From NCBI GenBank assembly GCA_964016885.1, contig OZ024740.1, forward strand, positions 190,402,001-190,466,000: DNA of 64,000 nt, in the 5' to 3' direction. Below the pieces are notes generated by a model. That model saw only the letters and a list, made by a program, of their open reading frames with translations. It did not search any database and was not told the DNA's origin. Positions 5,888 to 58,297 of the stretch are shown one piece after another. Position 1 is the stretch's first letter; each line of letters begins with the position of its first letter. The position numbers were made by a program, and so were the translations under genes. The DNA is from Eledone cirrhosa. Its lineage: Eukaryota.

Positions 5888-5898
5888 TATATATATAT

Positions 5899-6902
5899 CT
5901 ACCTAAGGCGGGTAAAATTTCCGAGATCCATGGACGAGTTCTCTCCAGCGGTCTCTGTCCCTCATTATCGCTGCCATGTCCTGCGTCTCCAACAGACCAG
6001 TGTCTGACCTTAGGGCATCAACATACGTCAACCTTGGTCTTCCTCTTCCAGTGTGTCCATGTAGGGGCTCCCAAAGGAGCACTGAGTGCAATGTCAACTC
6101 TGGATATCGGTGAGCATGTCCAGCTAACCTCAGTCTCCTCTGTGTCACTTTTGAGCTGACTTTTGGGATTCTCCCATACAGCTCTGAGTTTTTCATCCTC
6201 AGTGTATACTGATTAATGTTCAGAGCCATCCTCAGCATTCTCGTGTAGCACCCATCCACTATCTGAGTCAGTTTCTTGGTCAGTGTCCAAGTCTCAGACC
6301 CATACAGCATCACAGACTCCACTACAGCAATGAAGAGGCGGATTTTTAGGTTTCTACGAAGGTCCGACTTCCACACCGATCTCAAGCTGTGGCACGCCGC
6401 CCAGGCCTTGCTCTTCCTCTCAACCACATCATCTTCCATATTCCCAATCTTTGCTCCCAAATACAGGAAGTCCTCAACCAATTCCAGCGGCTTCCCGCCT
6501 ACATTAGTGATCCCCTCTGGCTTCTCAACATTCTCTACCAGATATTTTGTTTTAGTCTCATTCATTCTCAGCCCCACACTCATCGACACAGTCTCAACCT
6601 CCCGCATCAAATCCTCTGCCTCCTTCACTGTATTTGTCACCAAAACTATGTCGTCGGCAAATTCAGCATCCGATACCTTTTTCGCCCTAACTCTCCTGCT
6701 CTGAGCCGGTGCTACAGTAAAGCCAGAGTCCTGGTGTTTTTCCAGTGCAAGGCGCATACAATAGTCCACTACGATGATAAACAGGTAGGGAGCCAATGCA
6801 TCTCCCTGGAGCACTCCAGCCAGTATCTCAAAGAACTCTGTCATCCCATCAGGTGTAATGAGTTGGGCTTTGGTGTTGGTGTAGAGCAGCGATACCAGGT
6901 CT
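5899..6902 (-). pseudogene. RTE-clade LINE 3' half (RT domains 4-7 and C-terminus)
   Basis: Open frame DLVSLLYTN...GVLQGDALAPYLF...EFADDIVL...MLYGSETW...RLRLAGH...GRGRPRLTY; stop at 5903 followed by short TAGGTAG tail and (AT)n. Confidence 0.92.
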
Positions 6903-7630
6903 GCCCTGACCCGGGGTGGTTGTACCTGTTAGGGCTCCATTTATGGGTTAAATAACTACCTTATTCGAGTGGCGCCGGTAAGGCATTGTCAGCCATTGAA
7001 AAGAAATATGGAGAGTCGATCTCACAGCACTAGGGTTAGAGCCCCTAATTACACTGTCAAGGAGCAGCCTGGTCGTTATGACTCTGCTGGCTTAGAGCCA
7101 CAGAGAGGGCCAGTGGATGATGGATCAGCTGTCTCTGAGACAAATATAAATAATGCAGTTTTGTCCTGCAGAAGAGCCATCAAAATGGGCACTTTGAATG
7201 TGAGGACTATTCGGACGCTGGAGAAGAGAGAGGAGTTGGGACATCTTTTCGAGGAGAGTGGTATACAGATACTTGCGATCCAAGAACACAGGTTCCTACA
7301 CGATGAGCCCGTGAGGAGTGTGATGATCGGGAAGAAGAGCCAGCTCGTGACTACATCGGCAGTGAAGAACACAACAAATGCTGCAGTAGGAGGAGTGGGT
7401 TTTGTGTTCAGTACAAAAACCAATCTGTTGGTGAGGGAAATAATGCCTATCTCCCCGCGAGTGTTGAGGGTGACCTTCAATGGAAACACAAGACTGACAG
7501 TCATCTCAGCCTATAGTCCAACCGAGGGGGACAGTGGCGTGAGTGCGGAAGAGTTCCATGAGGAGGTGTGTAGAGCTGTCAACACTACTCAGGCACACAA
7601 TATCCTGCTTGTTTTGGGGGACTTCAATAT
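6903..7630 (+). pseudogene. RTE-clade LINE 5' UTR and APE endonuclease N-terminus, inverted relative to the RT half
   Basis: MGTLNVRTI...ILAIQEHRF...GGVGF...SAYSPT...VLGDFN, then runs into (TA)n. Confidence 0.9.
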
Positions 7631-7641
7631 TATATATATAC

Positions 7642-7699
<58 letters not shown>

Positions 7700-28993: not shown

Positions 28994-29086
28994 ACAAATA
29001 TATGAATGCATCCGTATATATAAATATATATATATATATATTATATAATTTATCATCTTCACTTACAAATGATTGCGTGTATACAT

Positions 29087-29121
<35 letters not shown>

Positions 29122-30170
29122 CATACATATACATATATATACATATATATATATATATACATTATAAAGTGAGTTTTTTTTTACAAAATGAAAAATAACG
29201 AGGTGTGCTACACCAGTGAAAGTATAAGGAAAAAAAGATGAAATCGAATATATATATATATATATATATATAGGCTTGGCACTTGTTGGTATAAGACGTG
29301 GATTGTCGTCTCTCCGGATTTGAAATTTTAATATTTTAAATCGACAGTAATCGGATTTATGTATGGTTTTAATTCTTCAGAGGACAAGGAAAACATACAA
29401 AAAAGATAAGATTTTGTGCTTTGACGCAATTATTTTGAAGTATATTTTACATATATTACCGTTTTGAACATGTTTATTTTCACTGTATGATTCATTCATG
29501 GGAGACAACACACATACGTGCTTTCTATTTTTGTTTCATACAGAGCATTTTGGTTTAGCTTAAGCAATCTTGTATTAGTTTTGATATTTCTGAGTAACAT
29601 AATTTAATTTGATATAATCTTGTTTGATTTTGTATAATCTTATCTGTATTTGACCCGATTTCGTTGTTTCTTGTATGATATGCTGATATTACAATAACTC
29701 CGTATATTTGTAAACAGACATTTACATCGTGTTTCTATATCTCTGTTTCCGGTTTCTCCCATTCATTAATTTAAATTTAGATTTAAAAATTTATTTTTAT
29801 ATTTATGAACTGCAGTTGCTCACGCTCTCACGCTGTCTCTATCTCTCTCCTTCCTCTCTCTCTCTCTCTCTCTCCCCCTCTCTCTCTCTCGATCAACGAG
29901 CTCTCTCTCTCTCTCTCTTTCTCACTCTCTCTAGATCAACGAGCTCTCTCTCTCTCTCTATCTATCTTCTCTCTCTCTCCCTCTGACCCCCCCCCACTCT
30001 TCCCGCTATCTCTCTCGCTCCCCTCTTCTGTCTCCCCCTTTTCTTTTCTTTTCTTCTGTTTCTCTTTTTCTCTCGCTGGAGTTATATCTCTATCTCCCTC
30101 CCTCACTCTGTCCCTCTCTAACCTCTACTCTACACCTCCCACTGTCCCTCTTTCTCCCCTCCACAGCGAA

Positions 30171-31133
30171 ATGGACTGCATGCAGGAAAAATGGGAAAAA
30201 TGTGAAATCAGGAGTCAGCGAAACTGGTCGAAGATTGAACTAGCGGTTTTGATCAAGGGGTGGACTATGGCTGATGGGTCTCCACCAAGCAAAAAGATGG
30301 CGGAGAACCTGAAGAGCCATGGGTTTATGAGGACCCTGGTACATATAGAGAGAAAGAGAAAAGAAATTGAGAAGGCGTATGTCCTCATAGCGCCTCATAT
30401 GGCGATGCTAAGCCGTGTCCTCAGGGAGGAGAAAACCGAAGGGAGGGATGAGGAGAAGGAGAGGGAAAAGGAAGAGGAAAAGGAAAGGGAAAAAGAAAAG
30501 GAGGAGAGCACAAGCACGGACCTGAAAGAAAATGATATACCCTCCGCTACAGGCAGGGAGGGCAGGCCGGGCAACCAACAAGCTAAGGGCAAAGGTGAAA
30601 AGCGAAATCACCTTCCGAAGGAGAACCAAGCGCAGAGGGACCAGTGGACAACTGTTCAAAGAAAGAACAGAAAGCACCGAGACACTGGGAGCAAAAAACA
30701 CCAAGTAATGTGCAAGTTTTTCAAGAACGGGACATGCTGGTATGGAGAGACAGGGATGGGATGCAGATTCGCCCACCCTAGGTCTCAAACGAACTATGCC
30801 CATCATACTCGCGCAACATGCCCCAGCCAAAGCCGAAATAAGCCGCTCCAGAAGTATGCTGATGTCGCGCGTGCTGCACCAACAAGGAGAAGGCACGCAC
30901 ATGCCGACGAGATACAGATGGCAGCAGCAGATCAGAAAAATTTTTTAGTGATGGCAGAGAAGATTGTGGGACAGCTGACCTGGCTGCATCGTCTCCAGAG
31001 CCAGGGTCATCCACACCAGCACTCGAGACCACCGCAGTTAAGGGACCCAGAGTGGCCGCCGCTGACACCAGACCAGGTGTCATACCGACAGCCATTACTG
31101 GCACCCCAAAAGTCACACCAGTGCTGCTGCTGA
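30171..31133 (+). CDS. LINE ORF1, 320 aa: Myb/SANT-trihelix-like N-terminus, charged linker, CCCH zinc finger
   Basis: ATG at 30171; NWSKIELAVLIKGW...KMAENLKSHGFMRT...RKRKEIEKAY; CKFFKNGTCWYGETGMGCRFAHP. Confidence 0.8.
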   Translation: MDCMQEKWEKCEIRSQRNWSKIELAVLIKGWTMADGSPPSKKMAENLKSHGFMRTLVHIERKRKEIEKAYVLIAPHMAMLSRVLREEKTEGRDEEKEREKEEEKEREKEKEESTSTDLKENDIPSATGREGRPGNQQAKGKGEKRNHLPKENQAQRDQWTTVQRKNRKHRDTGSKKHQVMCKFFKNGTCWYGETGMGCRFAHPRSQTNYAHHTRATCPSQSRNKPLQKYADVARAAPTRRRHAHADEIQMAAADQKNFLVMAEKIVGQLTWLHRLQSQGHPHQHSRPPQLRDPEWPPLTPDQVSYRQPLLAPQKSHQCCC

Positions 31134-34093
31134 ATGTCAGGGGCCTGGTGAAACTCAGCAACATGAGTAAAATTTCCTACCTGGGAGACTTAGCCATAAG
31201 CAATCAAGCACTATGCATGGCACTAACCGAAACGCACCTGACAAGCAGTATAGCAGATGCAGAAATACATATACCGAAATATACTGTATTTCGTTCGGAC
31301 AGGAAGGAGAGAACTCATGGTGGGGTTGCTCTGTATATCCGTGAAGATGTCACACCAATTGTTCTGTTGACACATTCAAACTCAGTCTGTGACACACTGA
31401 TAATACATATGAAGCAACTACAGACGGTAATATGTGTCACATATCGGCCGCCCGATGCCCCCAGTCATGAGGGTAAATTTGAGGATAGCCTAAGTAGGAT
31501 AGAAGAGGTCCTTGACAAACTGGACCAGGGTCTCAACATCCTACTGCTGGGAGACTTCAACCTACCAAAGGTCAAATGGCCTGAGGGCCACCTCCTCCCT
31601 GGAATGACGTCAATAGAACAGAGACAGACGGAATCCCTGCTGGCCCTCACACACAGGCTGTTCATGGAGCAAGCAATACTCCTCCCAACAAGAGGCTAAA
31701 ATGTCCTGGACCTCTGTTTTACAAACAACGAAGTGCTCATCCACAATGTAAAGGTGACACCAACAATTCTCTCGGATCATAACTTGGTAGAGCTAATGAT
31801 ATGTGGTCCAAGAGAACCAACAGAGACAAAACCACCAAGAAGCTCCGGGACGCTATCCAGCCTTAACTTCTACGGGGCTGACTGGAAGAAGATTAAGAGT
31901 GAAATCCGGAAGCAAACATGGAGTGCAAACATCGCCACACAAGACACTAACACACAATTTCAACACTTCATGACAACGATACACACCATATGCAAAAAGT
32001 GTGTCCCGGAGAAAGAGGCAAACAGACACAAAAATCTTATTCCCAGAGATAGGAAAATCCTTATGAGACGTAGAACTAAACTCTCAAACCAGTTGAATAG
32101 TCAACAAAACCAAAACAAGAAGGAATCCTATTTGAAACGTGCACTACTTGACACCGAGATTGCACTCAAGCTTTCACATGAGAATGAGAGGGCAAGGAAA
32201 GAGAACAGGGCCATAGAAAACATTAAAACAAACCCTAAGGCCTTCTTTAAATTTGCAAAAGAAACTGCCTCAGTACACTGCAAGATTGGACCACTCTTCC
32301 ACACGGACGGTTCATTAACCGAAAATCCCCAAGAGATATGTGAAATACTGAACGAACAGTACAAAAGTGTCTTCACATGTCCACTGAGGCCCATGCAAAT
32401 AACGAAGCCAGAGGAGTTCTTTGATGCCACAACACTACATCAAGAAATGGCAACCATCAACCACATAGACATAACGGAGGAGGATGTGGTGTACGCCATT
32501 GATGAAATTAGAACAGACTCGGCTGCTGGACCTGATGGATTCCCAGCAGTTCTCCTAAAAATATGTAAGCGGGCCTTAGCAACTCCACTGAAGATGCTCT
32601 TCAGAAGCTCCTTGGCTAGCGGTGTACTACCCAGGGAGCTGAAAGAAGGCACAATATGCCCTATCCATAAAGGAGGTAGTAGAGCGGAGGCCAAGAACTA
32701 TAGGCCAGTCTCCCTGACGTCGCATATCAGTAAGGTCATGGAGCGAGTCGTCAGAAAGAAACTAATCACTTTCCTCGAAGAAAATGACCGCCTGACTAGC
32801 ACGCAACATGGCTTCCGCCCAGGAAGAAGCTGCCTTACACAGCTGCTACATCACTACGACTGGGTACTGAGACAGCTACTAGAGAGCTCACATGTAGACG
32901 TGATATATCTTGACTTTGCGAAGGCCTTTGACAAGGTCGACCACGGAATGATATGTCACAAACTACACGGACTCGGCATAACTGGAAAAGTAGGTGAGTG
33001 GCTGCATGGCTTCCTGAGGGACAGAAGCCAGGCAGTCGCAGCAAATGGGGCCCTCTCGAGGGAAACACCGATAACAAGTGGGGTGCCTCAGGGGACAGTC
33101 CTGGGACCACTACTGTTTTTGGTGGCTCTCTCGGACATGCCCTCTGTGGTGCATGCAACAACATCCCTCACTAGCTATGCTGATGACACTAAGGTAGCAC
33201 AGGCAATCAAAAACCCGGCTGACGCTGCCCTCTTACAGCAGGATCTGGATGCCATATACAGATGGGCGGAAGAAAACAACATGCAGTTTAATGCTGGCAA
33301 ATTCCAAGCCCTACAATACAAACCTGCAAACACAAACACAAATATAGCGGAACACAGCTACACAGGACCAGGAGGGACCGATATCCCCGTGTCAAAATCG
33401 ATACGAGACCTGGGCATAGACATGAGCGATGATGCATCTTTTTCTTCACACATCATGAAGGTGGCGACAGCATGTAGACGATTCGCTGGCTGGATCTTGA
33501 GGACTTTCCTTACAAGAGATCGAGACACCATGTTGACACTGTGGAGGACTTTTGTCCTAAGCCGCCTGGACTACTGCTCCCAGCTGTGGTCACCCCATAG
33601 TGTCAAACTAACCACAGAGCTTGAGGCAATCCAGCGAAGCTACACCAAGAGGATTGCCAAGATGAGGGAGACAAGCTACTGGGAGAGGCTGAAGGAACTG
33701 AACCTCTACTCCTTGGAGCGAAGACGGGAGAGATACGCAGTGATCTACATGTGGAAAATCCTGGAGGGACTAGCACCAAACTTTGGCATTGGGAGCTGGA
33801 CCAACCGTCGAACAGGACGTCACTGTGTGGTGCCAAAGGTCCCGTCTTCCACATCTAGAATAAGGAGCAGGTATTGCAATAGCCTGGGATTCAAGGGCCC
33901 TCAACTCTTCAACAGGCTGCCGAGGCATCTGCGAGACTTGCATGACGTGGAGGTGGATGTCTTTAAGAAACATCTCGACACCTTGTTATCCAGGATCCCG
34001 GATGAGCCCACAGCAAGACACGAGGGAAACCTAAGGGCAGCAGCAACAAACTCCCTCCTACACCAGTGGCCAACCTATACAGGCTGGAGATAA
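31052..34093 (+). pseudogene. LINE ORF2 (APE endonuclease + reverse transcriptase) with one in-frame stop at 31697-31699
   Basis: LLNVRGL, LTETHL, GGVALY, YRPP, LGDFN, PTRG*NVLDL, SDHN; NYRPVSL, QHGFR, YLDFAKAFD, GVPQGTVLGP, YADD; ORFs 31052-31699 and 31733-34093 share a frame. Confidence 0.95.
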
Positions 34094-34167
34094 AATGTGT
34101 AGCAACAAGGGCGGTGCCCCAGCATGGCCTCAGCCGGATGGCTGAAACAGGTAAAAGAGTAAAAGAG

Positions 34168-34238
<71 letters not shown>

Positions 34239-34392
34239 AAGGAAAAGCGAAGTACTTTCAGATGTTCAAGTCCTTTAATAATAATGCTGTGATATATAAG
34301 GGAACGGATGAAAAACCCAAAAGCACGAACTTCATCCGTTCCCATGTCGATTCAATTTGGATTGCCTCGGAAACAACCTTGTTATGTAACAA

Positions 34393-34466
34393 GCTGTCTG
34401 ATGATGACACGACACTCGCACACAGAACAGCGTAGCCAGTGTCGTCATTGAAATATATATCACAGC
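34393..34466 (+). ncRNA. Type I hammerhead ribozyme, intact core (family D)
   Basis: GCTGT-CTGATGA-TGACACGACACT...AGTGTCGTCATT-GAAAT-ATAT-ATC-ACAGC; perfect 5-bp helix I; predicted cut after 34461. Confidence 0.8.
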
Positions 34467-34480
34467 ATTATTATTAAAGG

Positions 34481-34663
34481 GCGGTGGATTGGCAGTATCG
34501 CTAGAGGGTCGGACGCCATGCTTTCCAGCATAGTTACGTCCCTTTACGATCTGAGTTCAAATCCCGCCGAGGTTGACTTTGCCTTTCATCCTTATCGGGT
34601 CGATAAAATAAAAGTACCAGTAATGTACTGGCTTATTGCTGGCCTTGTGCCAAAAGTAGAAAC
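34481..34663 (+). mobile_element. Full-length SINE with TSD
   Basis: ATTATTATTAAAGG on both sides; the empty site is visible in the paralogue at 58121-58140. Confidence 0.9.
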
Positions 34664-34787
34664 AATTATTATTAAAGGACTTGAACATCTGAAACTACTT
34701 AGCTTTTCCTTATTCGATATTTACTCCGTCACTCCTATGTGGAAAAAGTACGTTGAGTGCTTGAATTGAATTGCATCAATGTTTACC

Positions 34788-34862
<75 letters not shown>

Positions 34863-35160
34863 TCGATTTCATCTTTTTTTCTTTATACTTTCACTCGTGT
34901 AGGACACCACGGTTACTTTTCATTATATATACATATCAAAGGTATATATTGAGTTAGGTACAAGTCGCCCGGGTGATTGGTAGTTACCACAATTCCAGTT
35001 TGTATTTATATTCTTCATTTTTTTCTTAAATTGAGACAAGCGAACCCAATTGTCTATAGTTGGTATTCTTTTCACCTCAGCGAATCCGGCCCCTTACGAT
35101 TTGATTTGAACATATATATATATATGCCTCTGTTCGTTTTTCTTTTATATTCTATTATAG

Positions 35161-36831: not shown

Positions 36832-37551
36832 TAATATATTTAGAAACACACAGATACATGCGGACACACACATATATACATGAATGCATCCGCACCCAAC
36901 TGTGAGTTAAGGGTGCCAACTTCACCGATGTTGCTCAATGAATGACTGGGACAGACCAATTCAGTTTGAACTAGACTGAACCAGTATCAGAGTTAAAAAT
37001 ACATTATGAAGAGAGAAGAAACATTTAGATATAATTAGTAATAAAATGTATCATACCTAAACCGTTCCTAAATTCCTCGACTACGTAGTTTCGTGGCATA
37101 AACAAAAACAATATATCAAATATATAGAGTCCTTGCGAGGTCTGCCGACTTATCAAGAGGATACCTCATTTTACTAGTCTCAAGAACGCGTCTACACGAC
37201 GTGAGAAAGAATCCCAAGGTATCCTCTTGATAAGTCGGCAGACCTCGCAAGGACTCTATATCTTTGATATATTGTTTTTGTTTATGCCACGAAACTACGT
37301 AGTCGAGGAATTTAGGAACAGTTTAGGTATGATACATGTTATTACTAATTATATCTAAATGTTTCTTCTCTCTTCATAATGTATTTTTAACTCTGATACT
37401 GGTTCAGTCTAGTTCAAACTGAATTGGTCTGTCCCAGTCATTCATTGAGCAACATCGGTGAAGTTGGCACCCTTAACTCACAGTTGGGTGCGGATGCATT
37501 CATGTATATATGTGTGTGTCCGCATGTATCTGTGTGTTTCTAAATATATTA
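36832..37551. repeat. Near-perfect inverted repeat, 335-bp arms, 50-nt spacer; each arm has an HHR-like motif
   Basis: Arms 36832-37166 and 37217-37551; CCTC-TTGATAA-GTCGGCA...TGCCAC-GAAAC-TACGTA-GTC-GAGG at ~37223-37308. Confidence 0.92.
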
Positions 37552-40060
<2,509 letters not shown>

Positions 40061-40780
40061 ATGGTAGAACACTGGTGGGTTATATCTGCAGTAGTAGAGC
40101 ACTCAGTCCATGGGATGTGTTTGGTAGAAGTAGTTCCACAACATTTATTACACAATTTCCAAGAACAGTTTCTAATTGGAAAAAGGAAAACGTTGTCATA
40201 AATAGATATGCGCAGGATATATTCTCTAAGGGGTGCCAACTCACGTTTTGAATGATGGTAAAGGGGTGGGGGATGGCTTTCTGCGAAAGATGAGAATACA
40301 TTTAATTTCTCATGATACTTGGTCTAGGGGTGTTACGTCCGAGAGTCAGTTGGGGTGTGAAAATTGCGTTATAGGATTTTCAACTCGTGGGAAAACGTGA
40401 GAAGAAATCGGATCTCGTAATTAGACTAGCGATATTACGTAATCTCCTCCGGATATCGATTCTTTCTTCAATACTCATCCTACAAGACAGATTCCCATTT
40501 CTGTATGGCTTAGGTTATCCTGTCTATAAGATTAGTCTGTAATCAGTTTGAATTTTCTAAATTCAAATCTCCGCTAGAGCGTTAAATATTTAGCATTGAA
40601 ACTGAGATCTGATCATGTTTCCTGCATCACATTTTCCGAAAGTGGGATATATGCTTGATGGTTTTATGACATAATGACTTGTGTAGTAAATATGCTAAAT
40701 TTAAACTTTACATTTTCGGCAGGATGGTGTTTGAAAGAAATACGTCGTGTCACAGAATTTCTCGTACCTAAATTATTAGC
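40061..40780 (-). pseudogene. Highly degenerate PLE RT C-terminal/linker remnant
   Basis: Fragments NMIRSQF, TNLIDR/G*PK (compare L..RGYP) and [11 protein letters not shown] across frameshifts. Confidence 0.4.
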
Positions 40781-55924: not shown

Positions 55925-56082
<158 letters not shown>

Positions 56083-56137
56083 GTATATATAAGTATGTAT
56101 GTATGCATATATACGTGTGTATATATAGAGAGAGAGA

Positions 56138-58244
56138 GAATAAGGAAAAGCGAAGTAGTTTCCGATGTTCAAGTCTTTTATAATAATAATGCTGTGATAT
56201 ATATTTCAATGGCGACAGTGGCCACACTGTTCCGTGCGCCAGTGTCGCGACATCGTCAGATAGCTTGTTACATAATAACGTTATTTTTCCGAGGCAATCC
56301 AAATTCAATCGACATAGGAACGGACGAAGTGTGTGCTCTTGGGTTCTTCATCCGTTCCCTTGTGAGTACCAATTCACCCCCACCGATCTGAGCAGGCGCA
56401 GGTCCGAAGGAAGTTGACCATTAACTACCGCAGATTTCAACGAAATTCGCTTAGTCAGTTCCCACTCTCAACCAAACAATGTCCCATTCAGGCCTTTAAT
56501 ATATAGCTTACTACTACCTACCCCGTCTGTGGCAGTCCGTCGGAAGCCAGTGGGGATGGGAGAGTGTGAGTATCTATAGGTCTCAATATTACCCTTTCAT
56601 TAAGCATGGACAGTATAATTGACCATCAACTTCTAAGAGAAAATATACTTAATTCTAGGTATCATGGTTTCACAGTGGAAGTTATGAATGAGAGTTGGAA
56701 ATTAGAACTAAAAATTAAAATTTAAGATCGAAAATCAGAAATCCAATATCAAAAATTAGAAATTAAAAATTAACAATTAAAAATAAAAAAACATTTTCAA
56801 GTGAGAATCTGGATTGAGGTGAGTAAATAAATATAGATTGAAGTGAGTAAATAATATATGCACCCATACTATCTACTACGTAGAGAGATGTTTAAGTAAG
56901 AAGTTTTGAAAGGGGTATTAATGTTACTGTTATATTATCTACATTTTGAACGATAGTACCGTACAGTAGAACTGAAGGTAAATTACACTATGAAAGGTAG
57001 TAGTTAGTGGGTACATAGTTGGAATTTCCATCACATGGAACAAAACAAAAAAAAAACAGATATAAAGTACACACAAGAAAAAAACTAATAAATGCAAAAA
57101 CGCATACAGTTCATATATGCAAAAAGCCCCCCTCCCCCCTAATTCAATATATATATGTACAAATTGACAATCATATTAATCATCTATCTCATTTTGCATA
57201 TATGTACTGTATGTGTTTTTGCATTTATTAGTTTTTTTCTTTTGTGTACTTTATATCTGTTTTTGTGTTGTTCCTTGTGATGGAAATTCCATCAATGTAC
57301 TCAACTACCTACTACCGTTCATACTGTAATTTACCCTCAATTCTACTGTACGGTACTATCGTTCAGTATGTAGATAATATAACTGTAACATTAATACCCC
57401 TTTCAAACTTCTTACTTAAACATCTCTCTACGTAGTAGATAGTATGGGTGCATATAGTACTTACTCACTTCAATCTATATTTTTTTACTCACCTCAATCC
57501 AGATTCTCACTTGAACATTTTTTTTTTATTTTTAATTGTTAATTTTTAATTTCTAATTTTTGATATTGGATTTCTGATTTTCGATCTTAAATTTTAATTT
57601 TTAGTTCTAATTTCCAACTCTCATTCATAATTTCCACTGTGAAACCATGATACCTAAAAATTAAGTATATTTTCTCTTAGAGGTTGATGGTCAATTATAC
57701 TGTCCATGCTTAATGAGGGGTAATATTGAGACGTATAGATACTCACACTCTCCCATCCACACTGGCTACCGCCTGACTCCCACAGACGGGGTAGGTGGCA
57801 GTAAGCTATATATTACAGGCCTGAATGGGTCATTCTTTGGTTGAGAGTGGTAACTGACTAAGCGAATTTCGTTGAAATCTGCGGTAGTTAATAGTCAACA
57901 TCCTTCGGACCTGCACCTACGCAGACCGGTGGCGGTGAATTGGTACTCACAATGGAACGGATGAAGAACCCAAGAGCACACACTTCGCCCGTTCCCATGT
58001 CGATTGAATTTGGATTGCCTTGGAAACATAACGTTATTATGTAACAAGCTGTCTGGCGATGTCGCGACACTGGCGCACAGAACAGTGTGGCCACTGTCGC
58101 CATTGAAATATATATCACAGCATTATTATTAAAAGACTTGAACATCTGAAACTACTTCGCTTTTCCTTATTCGATATTTACTCCGTCATTCGTACGTGGA
58201 ATAAGTACGTTTTGTGCTTGAATTGAATTGCATAAATGTTTACC

Positions 58245-58250
<6 letters not shown>
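56138..58250. repeat. ~2-kb palindrome of family D (arms ~985 bp, spacer ~67 nt); HHRs at 56191-56264 (-) and 58048-58121 (+)
   Basis: 56138-57124 is the reverse complement of 57192-58172 with scattered mismatches; minus-strand core CTGACGA, plus-strand core CTGGCGA. Confidence 0.92.

Positions 58251-58289
<39 letters not shown>

Positions 58290-58297
<8 letters not shown>

Follow-up and report, generated by a model that had tools for sequence, protein, structure and literature searches.

The 64,000-nt stretch of Eledone cirrhosa DNA analyzed here (GenBank assembly GCA_964016885.1, contig OZ024740.1, positions 190,402,001 to 190,466,000; called the window below) contains an octopus CR1-like LINE with an intact ORF1. 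The reading that we favor, and consider moderately probable, is that a Myb-like domain replaced the PHD finger of this ORF1 and serves to tether the element loosely to DNA or chromatin, and that the retained CCCH finger binds the RNA of the element. The element and its flanks comprise the following features, with the strand in parentheses and a dot where no strand applies.

29248–29272 (.): upstream flank, (TA)12.5
29273–34169 (+): CR1-like LINE, apparently full length; its 5' limit is deduced from the (TA)n flank together with a host-repeat paralog
29273–30170 (+): presumed 5' untranslated region, AT-rich and then a (CT)n tract (29825–29984), assigned to the element by inference
30171–31133 (+): ORF1, an intact open reading frame of 320 aa
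30863–34093 (+): ORF2 reading frame, −1 relative to ORF1 with a 271-nt overlap; APE from approximately 31121, RT core at 32663–33316
31697–31699 (+): premature in-frame TAA inside the endonuclease region of ORF2
34094–34169 (+): 3' UTR of 76 nt, with two predicted hairpins and the terminus (GTAAAAGA)2 GTA at 34151–34169
34170–34234 (.): downstream flank, (TA)32.5

ORF2 matched two Pfam families, Exo_endo_phos (E 1.3e-6) and then RVT_1 (E 3.3e-30), and these matches downstream of ORF1 bear out the LINE context that an earlier note on this DNA had given it. The RT-containing segment of ORF2 was 30–35% identical to stork RT proteins, which we take to be bird CR1; in an RT tree without curated CR1 references (described below), the element fell in a clade of its own (100/99) and the stork proteins lay elsewhere in a moderately supported group of 48 rows (93/95). 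LINEs of the CR1 lineage have a 3' end of short tandem repeats instead of poly(A). The terminus listed above is likewise a short tandem repeat and not poly(A), and a similar 9-mer repeat ends locus L001. As judged from these sequence features, the element is an APE-type LINE with a CR1-like RT. The copy in the window cannot make full ORF2p, because of the TAA at 31697–31699, and no second copy of the LINE was found within the window.

Because both flanks are (TA)n, the target-site duplication of the LINE cannot be delimited. A paralogous host repeat at 34640–34920 corresponds to both outer flanks of the LINE together, inverted; the TA tract between them has no interruption, and one side is longer by 67 nt. 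Because the TA tract of this paralog is uninterrupted, we read 29273–34169 as one insertion; the LINE would have entered the TA tract of a host repeat once. Short interspersed host repeats with (TA)n lie at 34227–34924, 56007–56361, and 57951–58297, with inverted arrangements around the LINE 3' flank. Elsewhere in the window are a satellite of approximately 2.6 kb (37500–40100), in which short TA runs are punctuated by G (5–7% GC), and a 196-aa frame at 2333–2920 (−) that matched HTH_32 (E 1.9e-4) and HTH_18 and is possibly a DNA-transposase fragment. An Rfam scan of 29000–35000 gave nine matches, which lay mostly in TA repeats and all scored well under the gathering cutoff, and a search for tRNA genes found none.

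Within ORF1, the following parts were distinguished.

30219–30422 (+): Myb/SANT-like domain, residues 17–84, with predicted helices at 21–33, 41–49, and 56–84
30426–30509 (+): E/K-rich run, residues ~86–113, the start of a poorly conserved linker and partly a repeat expansion
30711–30776 (+): single CCCH finger, C-x7-C-x8-C-x3-H, residues 181–202 (zf-CCCH, pattern)
30906–30995 (+): residues 246–275, a hydrophobic segment that is conserved and contains F-L and L-x-W; from its pattern, likely an amphipathic helix

The N-terminus of ORF1 contains W19-S-x2-E23-L-x2-L-I-x2-W31, MAENLKSHGFMRT (residues 43–55), and K62-x-K-x-I-x-K-x-Y70. This motif spacing, the E/K-rich linker, and the C-x7-C-x8-C-x3-H finger had been claimed in the earlier note, and all are present as claimed. 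The E/K run overlaps an AGGAAA-type repeat (30438–30503). Mean identity of the relatives to ORF1 was highest in the CCCH finger (59%, n = 8), followed by the tail (49%, n = 5), the F-L segment (44%, n = 8), and the Myb-like part (40%, n = 13), and it was only 21% (n = 7) and 16% (n = 8) in the two linkers. This pattern of identity indicates that the Myb-like, CCCH, F-L, and tail modules are under selection, with the E/K run poorly kept. The loose CCCH pattern occurred in 105 of 20000 shuffles of ORF1. A shuffle test of the Myb regular expression (0 of 20000) was circular, because the expression had been derived from the ORF1 sequence, and was not counted.

An exhaustive search with ORF1 among 1.84 billion representatives (E ≤ 0.001) returned 18 matches; an earlier word-indexed search had returned none at E ≤ 0.01 among 1994 candidates. 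Twelve matches lay over the Myb-like part, three were C-terminal parts, two were PHD-like plus tandem-CCCH proteins (P0032 and P0034), and one was an unrelated CCCH-repeat protein. Organisms were looked up for 17 of the 18, and all seven that were named were Octopus (six O. vulgaris and one O. sinensis); a profile search in which the best 7999 candidates were scored gave 12 matches, nine of them named Octopus. The order of Myb-like domain, linker, single CCCH finger, and F-L segment was also found in P0021, P0023, P0025, and P0038. In P0022 a frameshifted tail continues into the start of an endonuclease, and the ORF1 family is therefore tied to LINEs. By annotation, P0020, P0024, P0026, P0029–P0031, P0036, P0038, and P0041–P0044 are hypothetical or uncharacterized Octopus genes; they are homologous to the LINE ORF1, and several of them are truncated or frameshifted. 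Several relatives annotated as uncharacterized host genes are probably LINE ORF1s.

Residues 17–84 very probably adopt a Myb/SANT-like fold, as modeling and comparison of structures suggest. Myb_DNA-bind_4 was the sole recurrent Pfam match: it was matched by 7 of the 13 aligned members (best E 8e-5), and any other family was matched by at most one. When residues 1–90 were scanned alone, it was the single family match (E 0.064, 14.1 bits); it was not listed when the whole ORF1 protein was scanned. All scores shown were below the gathering value of this family (PF13837, 27 bits), with 14.1 and 16.2 bits for ORF1 and 19.2 bits for P0025. By these profile scores the trihelix family (Myb_DNA-bind_4) is the closest in Pfam, and ORF1 falls short of formal membership. 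AlphaFold2 with the family alignment produced a three-helix model (pLDDT 88.2) with helices at ORF1 positions 21–33, 41–49, and 56–84; together with the recurrent Pfam match, the model upholds the earlier claim of a Myb/SANT-like domain.

A structural search of 48161 chains gave ARR1 (Z 7.4, rmsd 2.0, 58 aligned), GT-1 (2jmw; Z 7.1, rmsd 4.7, 69 aligned), and Drosophila Zeste (5cqq; Z 6.3). Further top matches were PHR2 (Z 7.0), LUX, RSC8, RAD, and the SANT domain of DNAJC2; the top rows had Z-scores of 5.7–7.4, and nearly all of the top 50 rows were Myb, SANT, or homeodomain-like. All Z-scores were below 8, and homeodomains were level with GT-1 (CDX2 7.1, against 7.1 for GT-1, 7.4 for ARR1, and 7.0 for PHR2). 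Of the checks proposed in the earlier note, AlphaFold gave the three-helix fold, and Foldseek with the model of the domain gave no match at E ≤ 0.001. A PDB sequence search with residues 1–90 gave no matches. When the family profile was compared with PDB sequences, no Myb protein was significant; the best match was ribosomal protein S8 (E 0.003), a likeness over ~32 residues that we attribute to chance, since S8 was absent among the fold-search rows shown. A single-sequence AlphaFold2 model of ORF1 was poor (pLDDT 65.8, below 50 at residues 1–19) and was rejected; the fold search with it gave only coiled coils (Z < 5). ESM Atlas scores of 0.82–0.89 were treated as leads only.

The likeness to trihelix domains of PF13837 (GT-1, Zeste) consists of the W-x3-E-x3-L-I of helix 1, an L-x3-G-F-x-R-T-x2-Q turn into helix 3, and a long third helix. 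The ORF1 domain differs from them in its score below the gathering cutoff, in a shorter helix 1–2 loop, and in its location in a retrotransposon ORF1. The trihelix consensus has three regularly spaced tryptophans. W19 was found in 11 of 12 rows; in a comparison by eye with this consensus, N (position 40, 10 of 13) and K (position 63, 10 of 13) apparently stand in for the other two signature Trp, a further difference. Because two signature Trp appear to be replaced, sequence-specific DNA binding by the Myb-like domain may have been lost.

Myb domains contact DNA through the face at the start of helix 3. On that face R54 is invariant (13 of 13), and Q58, R61, K62, and K63 are near-invariant. These residues, and the DNA-bound domains that make up most of the structural neighbors, argue against an alternative that we consider unlikely, in which a Myb/SANT fold no longer reads DNA and serves as an oligomerization, protein-binding, or RNA-binding module with helix 3 as a stand-in for the coiled coil that other ORF1 proteins have. 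That alternative would account for the 29-residue length of helix 3, which extends past the usual recognition helix with conserved hydrophobic positions at 70–84 (Y, L, I, P, H, L, I), and for the near-neutral net charge of several members (e.g., 9 K+R against 9–10 D+E); the apparent replacement of signature Trp, as read by eye against the trihelix consensus, and the SANT domains among the structural matches also fit it. It is highly improbable that the likeness to Myb is due to chance, with the domain being a three-helix bundle of a generic kind that is peculiar to this family of LINEs. Although the profile scores are subthreshold, the Z-scores lie below 8, and the ESM Atlas values are leads only, three methods agree on one superfamily; one and the same Pfam family was matched by 7 of 13 members, and the 50 best structural rows are almost without exception Myb, SANT, or homeodomain-like. 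We retain the reading of a Myb/SANT-like domain that likely acts as a loose tether.

The CCCH finger matched zf-CCCH of Pfam on a 53-aa piece (E 8.9e-4, 19.6 bits against a gathering value of 20.5), and its spacing differs from x8-x5-x3. The x7-x8-x3 pattern was present in ORF1 and in 10 of 12 other proteins examined; of the remaining two, P0037 is a fragment that lacks it, and in P0026 it is degenerate. P0007, P0032, and P0034 share this spacing in their first finger.

The relatives of ORF2 comprised 18 long proteins and 45 LINE-bearing contigs (L001–L045) in prokaryotic assemblies, mostly MAGs; these contigs with LINE-type RTs are likely eukaryotic contamination. The RT tree was built from 51 rows, namely the window element, the other LINE of the window as outgroup, 38 of the 45 loci, and 11 of the 18 proteins. 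Two loci were set aside, five were too short or weak, and seven further stork proteins were left out. The element belonged to an 11-row clade (100/99) with P0007 (Pleurobrachia bachei), L002, L023, L001, and six ENA proteins, and P0007 was sister to the other ten rows. CCCH arrays were found upstream of APE in P0007, L002, and L023, behind a Cys/His-rich PHD-like segment (partial in L023). L001 is without its 5' part, PHD and CCCH are both missing from the six ENA proteins, and no upstream CCCH was found among the other loci screened. The PHD identity of these segments is weak: Pfam gave E 0.0013 for P0032 and E 0.0027 for P0034, both without a linked RT in the data, and no PHD match for P0007, L002, or L023.

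From this distribution we infer that an ORF1 with a PHD-like segment and tandem CCCH fingers is fairly likely to be the older form, and that the octopus lineage swapped its N-terminal finger for the Myb-like domain and kept one CCCH. The two kinds of element share an RT clade (with P0007, L002, and L023) and a homologous first CCCH finger; L002 and L023 also have a −1 ORF2 overlap, and P0032 and P0034 also have F-L near the C-terminus. The ORF1 in the window differs in its Myb-like domain in place of the Cys/His finger and in its single CCCH, and its ORF2 lacks an AUG before APE. The earlier note had counted the CCCH finger as part of an unusual architecture. Because the finger is common to PHD-like plus tandem-CCCH ORF1s of the same RT clade, it is not part of the oddity; on these comparisons it is real but inherited, and the oddity is the Myb-like module. 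The description of that module as captured is plausible, but no donor came from the exhaustive search or from the profile search, whose matches at E ≤ 1 among the best 7999 candidates were all members of the family.

Six members of the RT clade (P0008, P0009, P0010, P0012, P0014, and P0016) are single long ORFs with repeated helical units of ~70 aa before APE that belong to no Pfam family; P0014 carries an OTU protease domain as well (E 1.2e-11). A winged-helix reading of these repeated units, made by eye, was rejected, as none of the six ENA relatives matched such a Pfam family. The RT clade swaps its N-terminal modules repeatedly.

Two sites in the overlap of ORF1 and ORF2 bear on how ORF2 might be translated.

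30938–30947 (+): two slippery heptamers in tandem, A_AAU_UUU (30938) and U_UUU_UUA (30941), both in the ORF1 frame; candidate −1 frameshift site
30980–30982 (+): CUG in the ORF2 frame, with G at −3 and G at +4, overlapping the codon of a conserved ORF1 Trp; candidate ORF2 start

The first ATG of ORF2, at 31163, lies past the first endonuclease motif (31133), and there is no AUG before APE. A second candidate start, GUG at 31052, also lies over a conserved ORF1 Trp codon, and both CUG and GUG have strong contexts. In three of four related loci with a −1 overlap (L002, L023, and L006), a Trp codon of ORF1 is likewise overlapped by the first AUG of ORF2. Initiation at a near-cognate codon, CUG 30980 or GUG 31052, is the route to ORF2 that the positions of these codons slightly favor. 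A −1 frameshift at U_UUU_UUA would be the runner-up, a possible but doubtful route; it alone of the two would tether Myb and CCCH (residues 1–259) to the endonuclease. U_UUU_UUA is the frameshift site of HIV, according to PMC5009743. Elsewhere among the loci, L009 (459–492) has an esterase-type ORF1 (GDSL, E 2.8e-10) with the same TTTTTTAGTG string at its end, within a 34-nt −1 overlap, but its ORF2 has an ATG of its own at 522. The AUG-less −1 overlap of the window element is a testable case for LINE ORF2 translation.

The earlier note had raised a possible link of the Myb module to AT-rich or (TA)n targeting. Perfect TA arrays make up 2201 of 54751 nt (4.0%) of the window outside the two LINEs and the satellite, and a TA insertion site is therefore mildly unexpected. 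The other LINE in the window (~5895–7645), which by its motifs we take to be RTE-like, has RT and DUF6451, carries (TA)n at both ends, and shows neither Myb nor CCCH in its visible N-terminus. Because both window LINEs are TA-flanked and one has no visible Myb, the flanks give no reason to invoke the Myb domain, and the targeting claim is not supported. In the RTE-like copy, the RT/3' part lies on the minus strand, with the endonuclease part inverted on the plus strand (6933–7645); this arrangement would fit a 5' inversion by twin priming, accompanied by a deletion.

We consider it quite unlikely that the Myb domain directs insertion by recognizing DNA that is AT-rich or (TA)n, a reading in which a −1 frameshift at 30938–30947 possibly fuses the domain to the endonuclease. 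Such targeting would fit the TA flanks on both sides of the element, compared with 4.0% TA arrays in the rest of the window, and the uninterrupted TA tract in the host repeat at 34640–34920; however, the RTE-like LINE is equally TA-flanked, and a single insertion cannot show a preference. The evidence on the frameshift is divided in the same manner. The sole two slippery heptamers in the ORF1 frame fall in the overlap, and U_UUU_UUA arose in only 179 of 20000 synonymous recodings, but a strict heptamer of any kind arose in 5659 of 20000. F-L is retained in 10 proteins, including both PHD-type ones; in P0020, however, the −1 frame reads F-C-G, so U_UUU_UUA is absent from that copy. Distant loci gave a mixed picture, with a strict heptamer in the overlap of two of four related −1-overlap loci and none of three +1-overlap loci; all four −1-overlap relatives, on the other hand, have an in-frame ATG before APE. 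No stimulatory RNA structure was found 5–9 nt past the heptamer: in pseudoknot-free folding, the RNA downstream does no better than shuffles (z −0.43), and the hairpin starts 17 nt away. The combined proposal, that the LINE captured a trihelix Myb and fuses Myb and CCCH to endonuclease-RT by a retrovirus-style −1 frameshift at U_UUU_UUA, steering insertion into (TA)n, is very unlikely. If true, the Myb-CCCH-endonuclease fusion would be an R2-like design reinvented, with a DNA-binding domain tethered to a nicking enzyme.

In the mechanism that we prefer, with a Myb-like tether and a retained CCCH finger, the parts would act as follows. CCCH fingers are RNA-binding modules, and ORF1p would package or coat the element transcript through its finger; it would probably self-associate through its long conserved helices. 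In APE-type LINEs, ORF2p nicks the target and primes reverse transcription, and ORF2p with its AP endonuclease and RT would do so here by target-primed reverse transcription. Landing in (TA)n is likely a property common to LINEs of this genome, for example because the target is easy to nick or pairs with the ...GTA at the 3' end, and not Myb recognition. From its predicted fold, the Myb-like domain is likely a loose DNA or chromatin tether, a role that we infer for it by placing it in the slot where the PHD of ORF1 is proposed to aid general genome targeting (PMC4120745).

Like other LINEs of the CR1 lineage, the element has two ORFs, an ORF2 with APE and RT, a short 3' tandem repeat, and a modular ORF1 with an exchangeable N-terminal domain. 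The survey of ORF1 in 448 elements of the Jockey superfamily (PMC4120745, Metcalfe and Casane 2014) describes PHD, RRM, CCHC, Tnp22, esterase, and zf/lz domains and ORF1 types I–V. The Myb/SANT and CCCH domains of the window ORF1 lie outside that set; Myb, SANT, and CCCH do not occur in the main text, and Octopus elements do not occur in the element list (PMC4120745). By this survey the earlier note was right that the architecture is unusual for a CR1-type ORF1, which would be type V (unclassified) in that scheme. HTH_1 in the ORF1 of an algal L1 is a precedent for helix-turn-helix capture (PMC5203782), and the available text of that paper mentions neither Myb nor CCCH; Myb and CR1 are likewise absent from that of PMC9115989, and CR1 from that of PMC5009743. 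In the literature searched, which lay outside Repbase Reports, Dfam, and subscription journals, no prior description of a Myb- or CCCH-bearing CR1 ORF1 was found.

No sequence link of the Myb-like domain to R2 or Harbinger appeared in the exhaustive or the profile search. In R2, one ORF combines Myb and C2H2 fingers with a restriction-like endonuclease, and Harbinger/PIF are DNA transposons. The likeness to both groups is that of mobile elements in which a Myb-like domain binds DNA; unlike them, the window element has this domain in the ORF1 of an APE-type LINE.

CR1 is among the recently active LINE groups of Octopus vulgaris, with 13 families and 787 insertions according to PMC13282606. The PHD-like plus CCCH type of ORF1 is widespread, and neither it nor its octopus-type Myb-like derivative was found described in the literature searched. 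In that derivative, a slot presumed to read histones holds a DNA-binding fold. The PHD-like and Myb-like ORF1s are a natural swap pair with which to test the proposal that the N-terminal module of ORF1 targets the genome.
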